DNA of 12,662 bases, from positions 1 to 12,662 of the IMG/VR virus record IMGVR_UViG_3300029873_000363; one strand, written 5' to 3'. Source of the stretch: a virus (Duplodnaviria > Heunggongvirae > Uroviricota > Caudoviricetes). Positions 1,837-10,973 of this stretch are shown piece after piece. The first letter of the stretch is position 1. The number at the start of each line of letters is the position of its first letter. Both the position numbers and the translations under genes were made by a program. The notes under the pieces are model-generated. The model saw nothing but the letters and a program-made list of their open reading frames with translations. It did not search any database and was not told the DNA's origin.

Positions 1837-2727
1837 CTACTTAATATCAGAGACAGAATATTGTTTATTGAGCGTATGGGTGGGAGCACCAATAACGATG
1901 CTACTTCCGTGGCTATGTGCGCCAGAGGTGAGATTGCCTACGGGATTTTCTGGATTAAACCGGTGTGTATGCGAATCAGGGCGAGAGCGATTATTAGTCA
2001 GCACGTCATCAGCCTGATGCACATGGCTAATACAGAACTGCCCGGAACGTGAGCAATACGTCCGATAATCGCCGCATCCAATATATTTAGTATCCGCATA
2101 ACGGCAAACAGAATTACCCGGACAGTATGCATATGTGCCAAATACTGCCGACTGGCGGGATTGTGCGTATTCCCAGTTAATTGATTCTGTTTTTTTATTA
2201 AAGTTATCCCATGCCTGCTTCATCTGCCGGGCAACACTTTCAAACGGCACCTGACCACATCCGGCTCCCATTGCAGGGAATACCACAGTTTTTATTTTCC
2301 TGTCTGTCGTTGCGTGTTTATTGTGCTGAAAGATGGCAAGCAGAGCGGCCCAGGTTGCGTTATATACAGCGTCTGTTCCGTCAATTGTCAGCTGAACACG
2401 CATTGTTGGCGCATGTACCAGCCAGGGGTGATGATTATGCCCCGTTTCAATTACAAATGCAGAACCTACAGGCTGTTCGCCTAAATATTCACGAAGAATA
2501 TGATTCTGAACGCGGGACTGTAACTGAGTACCGAAGAATGCGGTAATGGCGGCATCAACGCCGCCATCCATCAGGCCGAAACTATTTGCCGCACTTACCA
2601 TGCAGTCAAATTCTCTGATTGTTTCAAATGGCTTTCCGACAATATTCACATTATCTGCGTTTGCAAATACCCGCTTAAATGCTTCCGCCATTTCTGTTAC
2701 TGGTGCAGAAAGAATGAGCGTAATCAT
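1837..2727 (-). CDS. Hypothetical protein with macro-domain-like N-terminus and Cys/His-rich C-terminus, inserted between stf and tfa
   Basis: 296-aa ORF whose ATG overlaps the stf stop (ATGA, revcomp of 2724-2727) and whose TAG stop (1837-1839) lies 8 nt before the tfa ATG. The N-terminal ~170 aa carry macro-domain-like motifs: [21 protein letters not shown] (cf. D-x-IVNAAN-x-L-x-GGGVdgAI), GSAFVIETG...WLVHAP, and [14 protein letters not shown] (cf. AFPxISTGxxGxP). The C-terminal ~100 aa have five Cys and several His ([39 protein letters not shown]...SGAHSHGSS). Confidence 0.6.
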
Positions 2728-5393
2728 GCAAGCCTCACAATATAGTTAAATGCGATGTTTTTGACGGTGTTTTCCGCGTTACCAGCAGCGTTAACGGTGA
2801 TGGTGTGTCCATGTGAACCAATCGCAACGGAGTGCGCATGAGCACCAATTGGAACAGAGTGCGCATGGTTACCTGTAGTGCTTGTGGCACCAGACCAGGT
2901 TCTGGAAGCGTTAAAGTTTACAGGAACACCATAAGTAAATTGAGAGCCCGTAAATCCATGGGCTGGCGCAGAGCCACCCAGTGTAAATGCTCCACTTGCT
3001 GTATAGAAATTACCGCTATCACTTCTGAAGTAACCGAGAGTACCGGTAATTTCCATAGTGCCTCGGCTGTGGTTATGGTCACCAGTGGCATTTGAAGACT
3101 TAGTACCATAATCAAACGACGACGTGGTTTTCGTCCCCAAATCCGTACTGGATGCACTGGCGCTGTGGGCGTGCGATTTAATGCCGTCCTGTTCCTGAGA
3201 CAATACGGCACGACCACTGGCAGGTTTGCCCTTAATCGTCCAGCCACGCATATCAGGGATCACGCCTGACGGATAAGCGGCTGCAAGTTTCGGGTAGGCA
3301 GATTTGTCAAAAGTCTGCCCCTGCATCAGGGCATAACCAGACGGAACGGTATCCGATGGCCACGGGATTGGTGCGCCAGGCGGATAAAACTGCTCTGATG
3401 GCGTATAGAGTGAATAAACTGTACCGTCCGTTAACCCTTCCGGCTTATTAGCAGAATATGCTGGTGACGTATGAATCGTCACGCTGGCATTACTGGTATA
3501 ATCCCATTGAATATTTACACCAGTCGCATAATTTCCGATTGCAACGTAAATATCGTAAGTATCACCAGATGTATTGACCCAGGCAAAATTTGTAAACCCT
3601 GTCGATGTGCGCTGCCATAAAGCACCAGTAATCCCCTTCGGATTACCATTACCTGCACGCAAAACAAGTTCAGATATACCTGCCTGTTGAGGTGAACCGA
3701 CGTTAAATCCAGCGCCACCAATCAACGTAATTGAAACAACAGAACTCGCCTGTGGCATGGTTACCGTTGCTAATTTGAACCAACCAGCACCACCGCTGAA
3801 TGACATTGTTGTTGAGTTAAGCGTACCAATATCTTTCGGCGTCAGTGTTATATCCTCCGAAAGCGCCTTACCATTCACCTTACGGTCAGAAGGTACCCGA
3901 TCATTCGCATTGTCATTCGCTGCTTTAACTGCCTTCGGTGTCGCGGCAAGCGTTTCAGACGTACTGTTGGTCGCACTGCTGAGCTGTACTATCCCCTTTT
4001 TCGTCGTGCTCGCATCCTCAAGCGCCACGGCGGATGCAATATCCTCTGCCCGTTTTGCCGCTGTCTCAGCGCGCGTTGCTGCGGATTCTGCCGTACTTTT
4101 GCTCTGTGCTGCCGCTGTCGCACTGCCAGCAGCCTCTGTCGCCTTTGTGGATGCCGTCGTGGCGCTGCTCTTCGCTGCTGACGCCTGTCTGGTCGCCTCA
4201 TCTTTTGAAGCAGACGCCGATGATGCCGATGACGCCGCCGAACTGGCGGACGATGCCGCTGCCGTTTTTGAGGATTCTGCGCTGGTTTCCGACGCTTTCG
4301 CGTTCGTTTCGGATGTCTTCGCTGAGGAAGCAGACCTCGCTGCTGCGCTGGCCTGTTCAGTGGCTTCGCCAGTCTTCGTTGTGGCTGTTGAAGCGGATGA
4401 TGCGGCGCTTTCTGCCGATTTTCCGGCGGCGGTGGCACTGACTGAGGCCTGCCCGGCACTTATTGATGCGGCACTGGCGGACGACGCAGCCGCTGTTTTT
4501 GAATCTGCCGCAGCTGAGGCACTCTGTCCCGCTGCCGTTTCAGAAGACCTGGCGTTCGTCTCGGACGTTTTGGCCGCCTTCGCAGAATTTGCTGTCGCCG
4601 TTGCCGAGGAAGCTGCGCTGCTGGCGCTCGAGGCTGCGCTCGTTTCTGATGATTTTGCCGCCTCTTTTGAAGCCGACGCATCCCGGGCTGAGGTGGCAGC
4701 TTCTGACGCTTTCGTGGTCGCGGTGGATGCAGAAGTGGCTGCTGATTGTTGTGACGCTGCGGCATTCGTTTCTGACGTTTTCGCCGCAGCGGCACTGGTG
4801 GCCGCCGCGCTTTTTGAGGACTCTGCAGCGGCAGCACTTTTTTCCGCTTCAGTGGCCTTTGTTGATGCCGTTTCTGCGCTGGAAGACGCTGACTGAGCCG
4901 ACGACGCGGCCTGTCCGGCTGACGTGCTGGCTGCGCGTGCTGAGCCTGCAGCATCAGTCGCATGGGTTGCCGCCTCACGGGCTGATGTGCTGGCATCGCC
5001 GGCTGACTTCTTCGCGGCTGCCGTGTTCTGTGCCACTGCGGACGCGTTACGCTCCACCTCTTCCACCATCACTTCAAAACGGCGCAGTGCCTCCGGTCGG
5101 ACATCATCCTCCGTCATGGCACCGAGAAAATCATTCAGCGTACCTGGTCTGGAACCTTCATAGACGGTAATGGTCCCGGCATGTGAAGGCGGAAAACCTT
5201 CAACCAGCAGGGTGACGCTGTACTGACCATGCTCAACATCCATGCTGTAACGCCCGGCTTCATCCGGATTTTCAGATGCCAGCGTGTTCACCACCACCGT
5301 GGTACTGTTACGTTTTGCTTTCAGCTGGATTGTGCAGTTCTGTACCGGTTTTCCTGTGCCGTCTTTCAGTACACCTGAAATTTTTACTGCCAT
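2724..5393 (-). CDS. stf: Side tail fiber protein Stf (lambda Stf homolog), 889 aa
   Basis: N-terminus [37 protein letters not shown]... is lambda-Stf-like. A long Ala/Ser/Thr-rich repetitive shaft follows. The C-terminus has the conserved tail-fiber tip motifs (GAPIPWPSD..., [25 protein letters not shown], repeated HxH: [26 protein letters not shown]) and ends ...[11 protein letters not shown]. The ORF is intact here. Confidence 0.9.
3986..5066 (-). repeat. Low-complexity Ala/Ser/Thr-rich repetitive region of the Stf shaft
   Basis: Stf residues ~110-470 are degenerate repeats such as [21 protein letters not shown]. The corresponding GC-rich DNA yields long spurious ORFs on other frames and the opposite strand (Ala-rich and Arg/Pro-rich artefacts). 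Confidence 0.5.
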
Positions 5394-5457: not shown

Positions 5458-6057
5458 TCAGAATTTATAACCGACACCAACGATGAAACTGTTGGTACGC
5501 CAGTCACCGCTGCCGGAGCCTTCATAAGCGACATCAACGGCCACGGATTCGGTCGGGTTAAACTGCACGCCAGCCCCCCACGCCAGAGACGTGTTGCTGT
5601 GGCGACCGTCATCACTTCCGGTCAGCACATCGTGCGTTTTCCCCGTATTGTCGGTCACCTGCAGATAATCCCCGGAGAAAGTCGACACACGGCTGTAAGC
5701 CACACCCGCCATCGCATACGCGCTGAACCATTCATTCACGCGCACAGACGGCCCCGCCATCACGCTGAACCAGCGGTTACGCACGGAATCTTCATGCCAG
5801 CGGGTATCGCTGTAATGGGTCAGCTGGCGATTCTTGTCTCCTGCATAGCTGAATGACGTCACCATCCCCAGTGTGTCCGTAAACTCATAACGGTATTTCA
5901 CGTTAATCCCGTTCAGATCATCGCTGCCGGGAACGTTCGTCGAGGCATGAAGATACCCCGCGCTCAGCGTGGACTGATGTTCAGATGCCCATGCAGGCGC
6001 ACCGGATACGGCCAGACAAATGGCTGCGGAAAAAATGGCGGCATAAAGTTTACGCAT
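5458..6057 (-). CDS. lom: Outer-membrane protein Lom (Ail/OmpX/PagC family beta-barrel), lysogenic-conversion gene
   Basis: Translation MRKLYAAIFSAAICLAVSGAPAWASEHQSTLSAGYLHAS... has a signal peptide (cleavage after AWA), alternating beta-strand pattern and C-terminal ...GVGYKF. It closely resembles lambda Lom as I remember it. RBS GAGAGG precedes the ATG. Confidence 0.92.
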   Translation of the reverse strand: MRKLYAAIFSAAICLAVSGAPAWASEHQSTLSAGYLHASTNVPGSDDLNGINVKYRYEFTDTLGMVTSFSYAGDKNRQLTHYSDTRWHEDSVRNRWFSVMAGPSVRVNEWFSAYAMAGVAYSRVSTFSGDYLQVTDNTGKTHDVLTGSDDGRHSNTSLAWGAGVQFNPTESVAVDVAYEGSGSGDWRTNSFIVGVGYKF

Positions 6058-6081
6058 AATTACCTCTCGCTTTTCTGCAAT

Positions 6082-6108
6082 AAAAAAGGCACCATTTCTG
6101 GTGCCCTT
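6082..6108 (-). terminator. Hairpin terminator between J and lom
   Basis: Imperfect inverted repeat GGCACCA (6088-6094) / TGGTGCC (6099-6105); on the minus strand it is followed by TTTTTTATTG (complement of the A-run at 6082-6087), directly 3' of the J stop. Confidence 0.45.
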
Positions 6109-6126
6109 ATATGGGTTATAACAATT

Positions 6127-9100
6127 TCAACGAATACTGATGCCGGAAGCGGCTTTTTTGGTCACAATCACCGTACAGTCGGTGATATTACCTGCCCGCT
6201 GATTGCCTTTATGGAAAACCTTAAACTCCAGAGTGACGCTTCCCCTGCCACTCGGCATATCAATAACCGCACTGTAGCTACCGGGAATGGCCCCTTTAGT
6301 TTCTCTGGATGCGATTAATACACCGTTTTTGCGAACTTCAAAACCATAACCCGTGTATCTTGTACCTCCCGGGTTATTACCACTTCCCGGATCGCTATAC
6401 GCTATTCCGTTAAAGATAATGGGCGGAATAATGATTTGACGGTCAAAGTTATGATCATCGCTGATGGTGACTGTAACCGTCCCGTTTGGTGTTTCCGTAT
6501 TACCCCACGTACCAGCCTGTTTCGGGAATGATTTGGATACAGCTTTAACGAAGTCACCTCTGACCTGAGTCGCCTCCAGCATGCCCTTAATCGTACAGTT
6601 TTCATTTACCGTGACATTGTTGAGCGTCCCGGCGTTCGCATTCACACTGCCACTGATATCCGCATTTTTAGCGGTCAGCTTTCCGTCCGGTGTCAGGGAA
6701 AATGCCGGTGGATTTCCACCGCTGGTAATGGTGGGGGCCGTCAGGCGTTTCAGGAACACTTCGTTCATGAATATCTGATCGCCCTGACCAACAAACATCG
6801 GCTTTGTGTTGCCATTCGCAGGATTAATCATCGCAATCCGGTCAGCAGCCAGAAGCACCTGACTCTGCATACCTGCTGGCGTATTCTCAATACCGGCTCC
6901 GATACCCGCAATATAAAGGCGTCCGTCCTTCATCTGCTGCAGTTTCACGGCCCACATGCTGTTCAGGTTATTATTTGTATCAACCTGAACTTTCTGTATC
7001 TGCTGGATTGCCGCGCTCTGATTTTCCAGTTTTTTATTGACGGTCTGCGTGATTTCATTGCTGACATTCGTAATGGACGTCCTGATTTCAGCCAGATCAG
7101 GCGCAAGCTGACCGTTATCAATCTGCGTCCACAGCTCCTGGGCCAGATGTGTTTTCCCGATTTCTCCTTTGAAAAAATCCAGGTAACCTTCCGCATCATC
7201 GCTCGCCCGACCGACAGCCTCCACGAATGCCGATTTGCTGACTGTGTTCACACTGCGAACGTAAAAATAATAATCATGGCCCGGCTTAATATTGATACTG
7301 GCGGCTATCCAGTACAGCGCCGTACCAAGATAGCGGGCTGTGGTTTCAACCTGCCTGATATCCGCAATCCGTTTTTCCGAGAACCAGAACTCAAACTGTA
7401 CCGTCGGGTCATAAACGGCAAGATGCGGCGTGGCGGTTATCTGAAAATAGCCCGGCGTCAGCTCAATCCTCGACGGTGCTGCCGGTGCGGCAATCCGGAA
7501 CGATACCGACGCCGGGTCGCCCTGCTGCCCCCACGCATTTACCGCCCGGACTGTCAGCCTGTAGTTCCCCAGCGCCAGTTGCCTGAAGCGGTATGTGGTT
7601 TCCGTCGTCCGGGCCGTGCTGACCAGCCGCTCACTGCCGTCATCCGCTGCCACGGTCAGGCGAAGCATAAAGCTCACCCCCTTCACCACCTTCGGCGTGT
7701 CCCAGCGCGCCAGTACCTGATACTCCCCGCTGTCTGCGGTGACTTCTGCGGTCAGGTGCTGCACCGCTGGCGGCGTGACACCATTTACCGTGCCGCTCTG
7801 GTCGCCGTCAAAGTGCGCCCCGTTATCCACGATGGCCTCTTTTTCCGGTACATGCTGCACGGCGGTGATGGCATACGTGCCGTCGTCGTTCTCACGGATA
7901 CTCACGCAGCGGAACAGGCGCTGGCGCAACGTCGGCAGCTTCAGCCCCCATACGCTGTATTCAGCAACGCCGTCAGGAACACGGCTCACTTTCACCTTCA
8001 CGCCGTCGGTGACGGACTGAACCTCCACGCTGACCGGACTCCCCTGCCCGTCAACCAGGCTTATCAGCGTGGTGCCGGAAGATGGCAGCGTGATTTCACG
8101 GTCGAGCGTCAGCGTCCGGGTCTGGCTGTTTACCGCCAGCACGCGCCCGCCGGTGCGGATACCGGCATAGTCATCATCGCAGATTTCAATGACATCGCCC
8201 GGTACATGGCGAAGCCCTTCGGCACCCACGCTGAAGTCCACGGTCTGCGTTTCCAGCAGTTCTGTTTTAATCAGCCACAGCCCGGCGCGGTGTGCCTGCC
8301 CCCGACTGGTACAGCCAAAGGCATCCATCTTCGTGACGTTACGACCGTAACGGGCAATGGCCTGCGTGTCCTCCACAAGCTCTGTCGCCGTCTCCCAGCC
8401 GTTATCCGGGTCAATCCAGTTCACCTCAACGGCATTATGGCGGTCTTTCAGGGCGCTGAAGCTGTAGCGGAACGGCGCGCCATCATCCGGCATCACCACA
8501 TTACTGCGGTTATAGGTCCACACCTTATCTGATGGCCGGTCCTGCACGAACGTCAGCGTCTGCCCGTTCCATACCGGCATACAGCGCATCGCCGAGCAGA
8601 AATCACTGAGAACATCCCACGCCTTACGCTGTGTGGTCAGCCAGGCATTACAGGTGATGCGCGGCTCCGTGCCGCCAAAACCGTCCGGCACCGACTGGTC
8701 GCAACACTGGCCGATGACATACAGCGCCCATTTATCCACATCTGCCGCACCAAGACGTTTACCCATGCCGTAGCGCGGGTGGGTCAGCATATCCCACAGA
8801 CACCAGGCCATGTTGTTGCTGTATGCTGGCTTAAACGTTCCGTCCCAGATACCGCTGTATTGCCGCGTCTGCGGGTTATAGTTCGACGGCACCTGCAGAA
8901 TGCGCCCGCGAAGATGATAATTACGGCTCACCTGCTGGCTGCCGAACTGCTCCGAATCCACCTGTACGCCGACCAGTGCCGTGTTCGGGTAGCACTGTTT
9001 CACATCGATGATTTCGGTGTATGACGACCAGAGCGTTTTGTTCTGCAGCTGGTCTGTGGTGCTGTCCGGCGTCATCCTGCGCATCCGGATATTAAACGGG

Positions 9101-9624
9101 CGCGGCGGCAGGTTATCCACCACCACCGAGGCCAGATACTGCGAGGTGGTTTTGCCCTTAATGGTGATGTCTTTTTCCGTCACCCAGCCACCATTACGCT
9201 GTATCTGAACCAGCAGGCGAACTTCCGACGGATTCCTGTCCCCCTTTGAGGTGGTTTCCACCAGTGCCTGCACACCGAAGGTAAAGCGCAGACGGTCGAT
9301 GTTTGCAGACGTAATGGTGCGGGTGATCGGCGTGTCATATTTCACTTCCGTACCCAGCACCGTCTCGGAGCCGGAGGATTCAAACCCCTCCGGCGGTGTC
9401 TGCTCCTGCTCACCGGCACGGAACACCACCGTGACACCGGAGATGTTGGTATTCCCCTCAGTGTCCAGCACCGGCGTACTGTTCAGCAGCACGCTTTTTA
9501 ATCCATCCACCGGACCTTCAACCGGCCCTTCGCTGATGGCATCGATCACACTCAGCAACTGCGTGGACTTCAGGTTGTCCTTCGCTTCGCGCGGGGTATG
9601 CCCCTTACTGCTGCCTTTACCCAT
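6127..9624 (-). CDS. J: Central tail fiber / host-specificity protein J (lambda J homolog), 1165 aa
   Basis: N-terminus [34 protein letters not shown]... and most of the first ~800 aa match lambda J as I remember it, including the fibronectin-like central region. RBS GAGGA precedes the ATG at 9624. The C-terminal ~350 aa diverge. Confidence 0.93.
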
Positions 9625-10332: not shown

Positions 10333-10973
10333 TTGTCGGTGTACCTCTCTCGTTTGCTCAGTTGTTCAGGAATATGGTGCAGCAGCTCGCTGTCACCACA
10401 GTAAATGGCGGCATGATTCGGCACCGATGAACCAAAACAGCACAGCAGCACANNNNNNNNNNNNNNNNNNNNNNNNNNNNNNNNATACAGCCCTGTGGCC
10501 TCCAGATTATCCAGATAGAGATTCTGACCGTGACGCCACCAGTCATCCCCGCGATGAAAATCCGGCATCTCAATCCCCGCCAGATGGTAAGCATCCCGGA
10601 ACAGCGTGTAACAGTCCGTCACCCCGTGCTCAAAGCGCCGCCCGGAAAGATGTGGCACACAGCGGAACTTGTGAATCGCCCCCCGGCAAACCAGCCACCA
10701 CGGCAAATTACTCTGCACCTGCAGCCGCCGGTCGGTCTCACTCAGCCAGGGCAGACCACCGGGGTGGCTGTGGACCAGCGCCACAATCTCACCCTGCATC
10801 TCTGCCCGCAGCCAGTCCTCCGGCGACATCCGGAAATACTCCTCCGGCTCACCGGAGATATTCACGCAGGGAAAATATCTTTCCCCCTCCGGTGTTCTCA
10901 CCACGAAGCCGCACGACTCCGCTGGCGCACATCGCCGGGCGTGCGCCAGAATCGCTGATTCTGTCTGTGTCAT
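10230..10973 (-). CDS. K: Tail tip assembly protein K (lambda K homolog; MPN/JAMM-like plus NlpC/P60-like motifs), interrupted by an assembly gap
   Basis: MTQTESAILAHARRCAPAESCGFVV... with a JAMM-like HSHPGG...SETD motif and a downstream Cys/His region (TDCYTLFRDAYHLAG). The ORF reads through 34 Ns (about 11 X residues), so the true sequence and length across 10454-10487 are unverified. Confidence 0.8.
   Translation of the reverse strand: MTQTESAILAHARRCAPAESCGFVVRTPEGERYFPCVNISGEPEEYFRMSPEDWLRAEMQGEIVALVHSHPGGLPWLSETDRRLQVQSNLPWWLVCRGAIHKFRCVPHLSGRRFEHGVTDCYTLFRDAYHLAGIEMPDFHRGDDWWRHGQNLYLDNLEATGLYXXXXXXXXXXXVLLCCFGSSVPNHAAIYCGDSELLHHIPEQLSKRERYTDKWQRRTHSLWRHREWHASAFTGIYNDLAAASTFE
10454..10487. 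other. Assembly gap (34 N) inside gene K
   Basis: Run of n characters in the sequence. Confidence 1.

Follow-up and report, generated by a model that had tools for sequence, protein, structure and literature searches.

Which outer-membrane receptor does a lambdoid phage recognize when the C-terminal third of its J protein departs from that of lambda, and how did such a protein come together? The question is raised by a 12,662-nucleotide stretch of viral DNA (hereafter the window; IMG/VR record IMGVR_UViG_3300029873_000363). A first-pass annotation, made from the sequence without database searches, had proposed that a lambda-like J protein encoded here carries a swapped C-terminus over positions 6130-7200 (minus strand), and that the swap implies a receptor other than LamB. 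This span corresponds to codons ~809-1165 of the J open reading frame (ORF). Comparison with related genes reveals that the divergent C-terminal third consists of three blocks, namely a shaft, a conserved fibre segment as well as the receptor-binding domain (RBD), rather than of one.

The J gene and its prophage setting

The window is 100% identical to positions 2844190-2856851 of the chromosome of Escherichia coli BEC1-S17-ESBL-09 (NZ_AP022298), where it adjoins yecD and aspS, and it represents the tail-tip end of a lambdoid prophage. Genes on the minus strand are ordered as the 3′ end of H, M, L, K, I, J, lom, stf, a macro-domain ORF and tfa. The lambda tail-tip synteny H-M-L-K-I-J-lom-stf-tfa is thereby recovered from the ORFs, from RefSeq annotation and from Pfam matches for I, Lom, the Stf N-terminus and Tfa.

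The complete J gene (tip attachment or central tail fibre protein) spans positions 6127-9624 on the minus strand and, according to the ORF list and its translation, encodes 1165 amino acids plus a stop codon. Its product is named 'phage attachment tail tip protein J' in RefSeq (WP_077557472.1). The full gpJ series of Pfam domains is present (Phage-tail_3, FNIII-A_GpJ, Ig_J, Ig_J_second, Phage_Tail_Tip and Ig_GpJ_C), and the matches to PF13550, PF24801, PF24421, PF24489, PF09327 and PF12421 all exceed their curated cut-offs and follow the lambda order. The protein possesses the hub domains, two Ig/FNIII domains, the tail tip fibre and a C-terminal Ig-like RBD, and it is homologous from end to end to lambda J and to the solved gpJ structures. 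BLASTP aligns it with lambda J (NP_040600; lambda genome NC_001416) at 82% identity over 1165 amino acids, and its last 345 residues match the solved lambda J chains 8iyk_J and 8xcj_Z with E values of ~1e-89 to 1e-90. These Pfam and PDB sequence matches fix the fold family. In lambda gpJ, cryo-EM has resolved hub domains, FNIII-1, FNIII-2, a shaft that is alpha-helical, a beta-prism central straight fibre and an RBD (PMC11101478). Domain order, synteny and fold family in the window are those of lambda J (NP_040600; 8IYK, 8XCJ, 8XCK), whereas lambda J has a shaft that is 28 residues shorter and an RBD that is only ~41% identical, and binds LamB. Three plus-strand ORFs over the span highlighted by the first-pass annotation (5947-6318, 6581-6778 and 7147-8532) lie antisense to J, a gene with full-length lambda J homology.

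Is this J still a working adsorption protein? Where the prophage ends close to yecD it holds remnants of genes, namely an HTH pseudogene and 96 nt of a 'capsid protein', and the tail module alone is visible in the window, as might be expected if the prophage were defective and J, although intact in appearance, a relic that no longer takes part in adsorption. However, all tail genes, H to tfa inclusive, are uninterrupted ORFs that Pfam matches over their full length, J is interrupted by neither a frameshift nor a stop codon, and close alleles are carried by the plaque-forming phages phi458 and cdtI. We therefore regard a relic as rather unlikely, although the idea deserves to be kept in mind, and read J as an intact lambdoid tail protein.

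Several other features of the window were recorded. The side tail fibre gene stf (2724-5393, minus strand; 889 amino acids), identified from the ORF list and the Pfam Stf N-terminus, contains at ~3750-5000 a low-complexity stretch of ~330 residues rich in Ala, Ser and Thr (GC content 0.60-0.62, AT skew about -0.4), which gives rise to spurious ORFs of considerable length in the remaining frames; no regular DNA array was detected in this Ala/Ser/Thr-rich region by Tandem Repeats Finder. Between stf and tfa lies the macro-domain ORF (1837-2727, minus strand; 296 amino acids), whose start overlaps the stf stop codon and whose residues 44-169 match Pfam Macro (E=5e-19). Over its entire length it matches phrog_2613, a family of unknown function, and its macro domain additionally matches a PHROG labelled 'tail protein'. 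The arrangement of stf, macro-domain ORF and tfa is annotated by RefSeq in many E. coli prophages. The last ~35 residues of this ORF carry an HxH-type motif, and their similarity to the HxH repeats at the Stf C-terminus is not significant (E=0.25). Macro domains bind or hydrolyse ADP-ribose.

At the prophage end adjoining yecD, a DinI-like gene (1-249) and a low-GC gene (GC content 0.33-0.34) resembling hexapeptide-repeat serine acetyltransferases (634-1206; matching phrog_2154, of unknown function) are both on the plus strand, opposite to the tail genes. They look like cargo (moron) genes. Within the K gene (C40 peptidase), 32 N at positions 10453-10484 appear as X in the translation; they are masked in the supplied sequence, and K is annotated as intact in the matching NZ_AP022298.

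Mosaic blocks and their junctions

Two alignments were used to delimit the segments of J. The first, at the protein level, combined the window J with those of lambda, 434B, lambda h434 imm21, cdtI, phi458, Stx2a_WGPS6, Stx2c_2409 and phage 21. The second compared seven J genes at the nucleotide level, with mismatches counted per 40 nt. Together they reveal J as an assembly of segments of three types, those of lambda, phage 21 and phage 434.

The lambda-type N-terminal block, which alignment and Pfam place at amino acids 1-820 (7165-9624, minus strand), comprises the hub and the two Ig/FNIII domains. It differs from lambda J by 21 substitutions (97.4% identity), bearing out the early impression that the first ~800 residues are lambda-like. 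This block is 96-99% identical to J of lambda, 434, 21, cdtI and phi458, and 72-83% identical to J of WGPS6 and Stx2c_2409.

Immediately after the residues GYLDFFKG, which end at amino acid 820, identity to lambda J collapses. Over successive 30-residue windows it falls from 28/30 (amino acids 781-810) to 15/30 and then to 3/30, and at the DNA level it drops from 58/60 to 21/60 at position ~7164. The nucleotide alignment places this first junction, from lambda-type to 21-type sequence, within the 13-nt stretch ATTTTTTCAAAGG (coding strand; 7166-7178, minus strand; amino acids 816-820), which is common to all J genes compared. In columns 321-360 of the nucleotide alignment the window has no mismatch to lambda and nine to phage 21, whereas from column 363 onward there are 16-38 mismatches per 40 nt to lambda and only 1-6 to phage 21. 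The end of Ig_J_second (amino acid 818) falls two residues short of the junction. Thus, the sharp drop in identity anticipated for a mosaic J is indeed present, and the departure from lambda J, previously placed after residue ~810, begins at amino acid 821. It is not continuous from there, as the region of amino acids ~950-1000 is again similar to lambda J (see below).

The second block (amino acids 821 to ~949; 6778-7165, minus strand) is assigned by alignment to the phage 21 type and comprises a Q/N-rich alpha-helical shaft and the upper part of the beta-prism fibre. Across residues 821-945 it shows 95-97% identity with J of phage 21, cdtI, phi458 and WGPS6, but only 28-58% identity, with a gap of 28 residues, with J of lambda, 434 and Stx2c_2409. 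The match to phage 21 is gapless and includes the 28 residues that are absent in lambda and 434; the alignment puts the corresponding 28 extra codons (84 nt) at ~7002-7120.

Q and N together account for 24-26% of amino acids 821-895 compared to 10.4% of the whole protein, in agreement with the Q/N richness described earlier for this region, and the first of two peptides quoted in that description is found at amino acid 853. Although coiled-coil-like heptads had also been proposed, hydrophobic periodicity at 3.5 residues is not significant in the Q/N segment (the observed power is reached in 854 of 5000 shuffles), and the best a/d register is just 52% hydrophobic. The segment is nevertheless predicted to be helical, with AF2 helices at amino acids 826-836 and 842-877 (pLDDT 61-75). 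This single-sequence model of the last 345 residues is poor (mean pLDDT 44.8), and solely its helix call for amino acids ~826-877 was used. The Q/N-rich segment is an alpha-helical shaft corresponding to that of lambda, not a receptor-recognition region.

A conserved lower fibre segment follows (amino acids ~950-1000; 6625-6777, minus strand). It lies inside Phage_Tail_Tip (amino acids 872-1000) and is flanked by junction 2 (~6748-6777, minus strand) and junction 3 (~6621-6632, minus strand), both located in the nucleotide alignment. Within the block of amino acids 946-1010 that contains it, identity to all eight J proteins compared is 86-98%, and its DNA is identical to that of lambda at 52-59 of every 60 positions, with 0-5 mismatches per 40 nt. 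Between junction 2 and the stop codon, mismatches of the window to cdtI and phi458 number only 0-2 per 40 nt.

The lower fibre segment also retains F952 (6769-6771, minus strand), the equivalent of F924 in lambda J. The lambda residue triggers HepS, an abortive-infection nuclease encoded by a prophage, and Gifsy prophages have Ile instead (PMC13043305). Conservation of F952 predicts that the window J would likewise trigger HepS.

The final block (amino acids 1001-1165; 6130-6624, minus strand) is an RBD of the phage 434 type. It contains Ig_GpJ_C (amino acids 1029-1164), which Pfam describes as a 'C-terminal receptor binding domain'. The RBD is identical to that of phi458, and differs by one substitution from that of Stx2c_2409, by two from that of cdtI and by ten from that of 434B and lambda h434 (V1006I, E1008Q, S1032A, Q1036K, A1037V, N1047D, S1077D, D1078N, R1127G and R1143W). 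Over amino acids 1011-1165, identity is 95% to 434B and lambda h434 and 99-100% to cdtI, phi458 and Stx2c_2409, compared to ~41-43% to lambda and phage 21. The final ~155 residues, at ~41% identity, are thus far from the near-copy of lambda J that, for the first-pass annotation, would have argued against a swap. The second peptide quoted there begins at amino acid 1058, with two letters transposed (the sequence reads HNFDRQ, not NHFDRQ).

The last 161 residues are 93.8% identical to the J C-terminus of 434 and lambda h434 imm21. When these residues were compared by tblastn with 50,697 phage records, 74 matched at 90% identity or more and 169 at less than 60%, with none between; other RBD allele types are 36-45% identical to that of the window. 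The RBD therefore clusters with that of phage 434 J, apart from those of lambda, phage 21 and the other types.

Could the C-terminal divergence have arisen within the lambda lineage by point mutation under diversifying selection, without recombination? Selection on host range is known to act on J C-termini (PMC11336670), and the divergent regions still align with lambda J. However, the shift in identity is abrupt, occurring inside 13 nt, and a nearly identical island separates two divergent blocks, each of which is 94-97% identical to a different named phage. The first of these blocks also carries the 84-nt length difference, and RBD identities are strictly bimodal. Point mutation on its own, an explanation to which we give next to no credence, is excluded by how sharply the junctions fall, by the island of conservation, by the donor types identified and by the bimodal distribution of identities.

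All of this favours recombination among existing alleles, and the junctions of J coincide with domain boundaries. We read the span as the last third of a complete lambdoid J gene that homologous recombination would have put together from three allele pools, with crossovers located in brief conserved sequences where the second Ig domain ends and within the conserved lower fibre segment. The proposal of a C-terminal swap holds in that the allele differs from that of lambda; it does not hold as a single event, as J contains three junctions and two of its modules were exchanged independently.

Receptor choice

Since the RBD is of the 434 type, the receptor of this J is most likely the porin OmpC instead of LamB, as judged by sequence relationship. 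With its J gene exchanged for that of 434, lambda binds OmpC, which 434 itself uses as receptor (PMC3509688; PMC11101478), and the h434 host-range allele, defined genetically, is present in the lambda h434 imm21 hybrid OM418627 (PMC9119081). The J proteins of 434 and lambda h434 (UMO75362.1, UNA07266.1), which represent the classical OmpC-specific host-range allele, share with the window a lambda-type N-terminus (97-99% identity). Unlike the window J, 434 J is 1137 amino acids long, its shaft being the short one of the lambda type. The 434-type segment transferred into lambda h434 also includes lom, stf and tfa, and the assignment of OmpC use to J therefore rests on statements in the literature.

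Phage 21 separates the contributions of shaft and RBD. Its J protein (UMO75436.1) combines a lambda-type N-terminus with the same long Q/N-rich shaft and upper fibre as in the window, but its RBD is just 43% identical to that of the window, and the native receptor of this phage is LamB (PMC11336670). The shaft type that is found here with a 434-type RBD is thus paired in phage 21 with a LamB-binding domain, which indicates that the shaft does not set receptor choice and that the receptor is determined by the last ~165 residues only. The view that the divergent region serves in receptor recognition accordingly applies to the RBD, which is of a type linked to another outer-membrane receptor; the Q/N segment belongs to the shaft.

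The ten RBD substitutions relative to 434 might instead confer a different or broader specificity, such as for OmpC variants of natural isolates, for OmpF, or for two receptors. The sub-allele defined by zero to two substitutions is common to phi458, cdtI and Stx2c/Stx1a phages of pathogenic strains. Moreover, in phage 21 single J substitutions can add OmpC as a receptor, and further mutations extend the range to OmpF (PMC11336670). The sub-allele may, unlike laboratory 434, recognize OmpC variants typical of natural and pathogenic E. coli or a second porin, and the shaft may adjust its reach. Yet RBD identity to 434 is 94%, where other types reach 36-45%, which argues for the same receptor class, and phi458, with an identical RBD, is recorded on the K-12 strain MC1061, just as 434 is grown on laboratory E. 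coli. We found no receptor data in the literature for phi458 or for the PhiR/mEp332 phages. An altered specificity seems to us improbable, and OmpC is retained as the most likely receptor.

Another phage was considered as receptor evidence and dropped. The Stx phage phi330, whose need for OmpC is proven by knockout and complementation (PMC12502783), has as its nearest genome WGPS6, which shares the window RBD, but its own RBD is of a different type. The J-like fibre of phi330 (XYY30176.1) is a lambdoid J homologue with the long 21-like shaft that is also present in the window. Identity between the two is 57% over the last 345 amino acids and much lower within the RBD; that of phi330 resembles those of phage 21 and PDB entry 9wca. 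The phi330 J gene (L010 17482-20607) is annotated as encoding 1042 amino acids and is apparently truncated at the N-terminus; a small ORF stands separately upstream of it. The solved chain 9wca ('A8 gpJ 713') and phi330 thus have in common a third type of J RBD, which resembles that of phage 21. OmpC is therefore used by at least two RBD types, at ~45% identity, and RBD type and receptor do not map one to one.

By analogy with lambda gpJ, we infer that J assembles as a homotrimer at the tail tip and that this trimer opens once the receptor is bound. Three RBDs would dock on a trimeric porin, and binding would be relayed up the beta-prism fibre and the helical shaft so that the tail tip opens. 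We consider it highly probable that J is a recombined mosaic of lambda-, 21- and 434-type segments that would dock in this way, with OmpC favoured over LamB as the porin.

A widespread allele and its consequences

The same three-part architecture occurs in phages already sequenced. The J proteins of phi458 (UYE91775.1; 97.9% identity over the full length, with an identical RBD) and cdtI (YP_001272531.1; 97.6%, with two RBD differences) are likewise 1165 amino acids long. Each differs from the window J by ~25 scattered substitutions, most of which fall in the first 820 residues or in the shaft, and the genes downstream of lom in both phages are unlike those of the window.

The combination of long shaft and RBD is present in 1174 of 5426 complete E. 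coli genomes, or about a fifth, where a genome was counted if a match covered at least 80% of window positions 6130-7164. Other E. coli genomes match this query over positions 360-1035 only or 1-570 only, a pattern consistent with independent assortment of shaft and RBD modules. Lambdoid phages are a textbook case of modular exchange. Given its occurrence in sequenced phages and in roughly one in five complete E. coli genomes, the J allele of the window is an ordinary one, already known, widespread and derived from ordinary modular exchange.

The gene carries little weight as a discovery. It illustrates cleanly how a phage receptor-binding protein can recombine at its domain boundaries, and a practical rule for annotation follows. 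Because the Q/N-rich shaft is exchanged independently, receptors of lambdoid J proteins should be predicted from the last ~165 residues only. The 21-type shaft, longer by 28 residues, may tune the reach of the tip through O-antigen or capsule, and if so the pairing of shaft and RBD would be functional rather than neutral. Finally, the predicted dependence on OmpC of a prophage carried by an ESBL E. coli strain bears on which bacteria could act as recipients and on patterns of superinfection.
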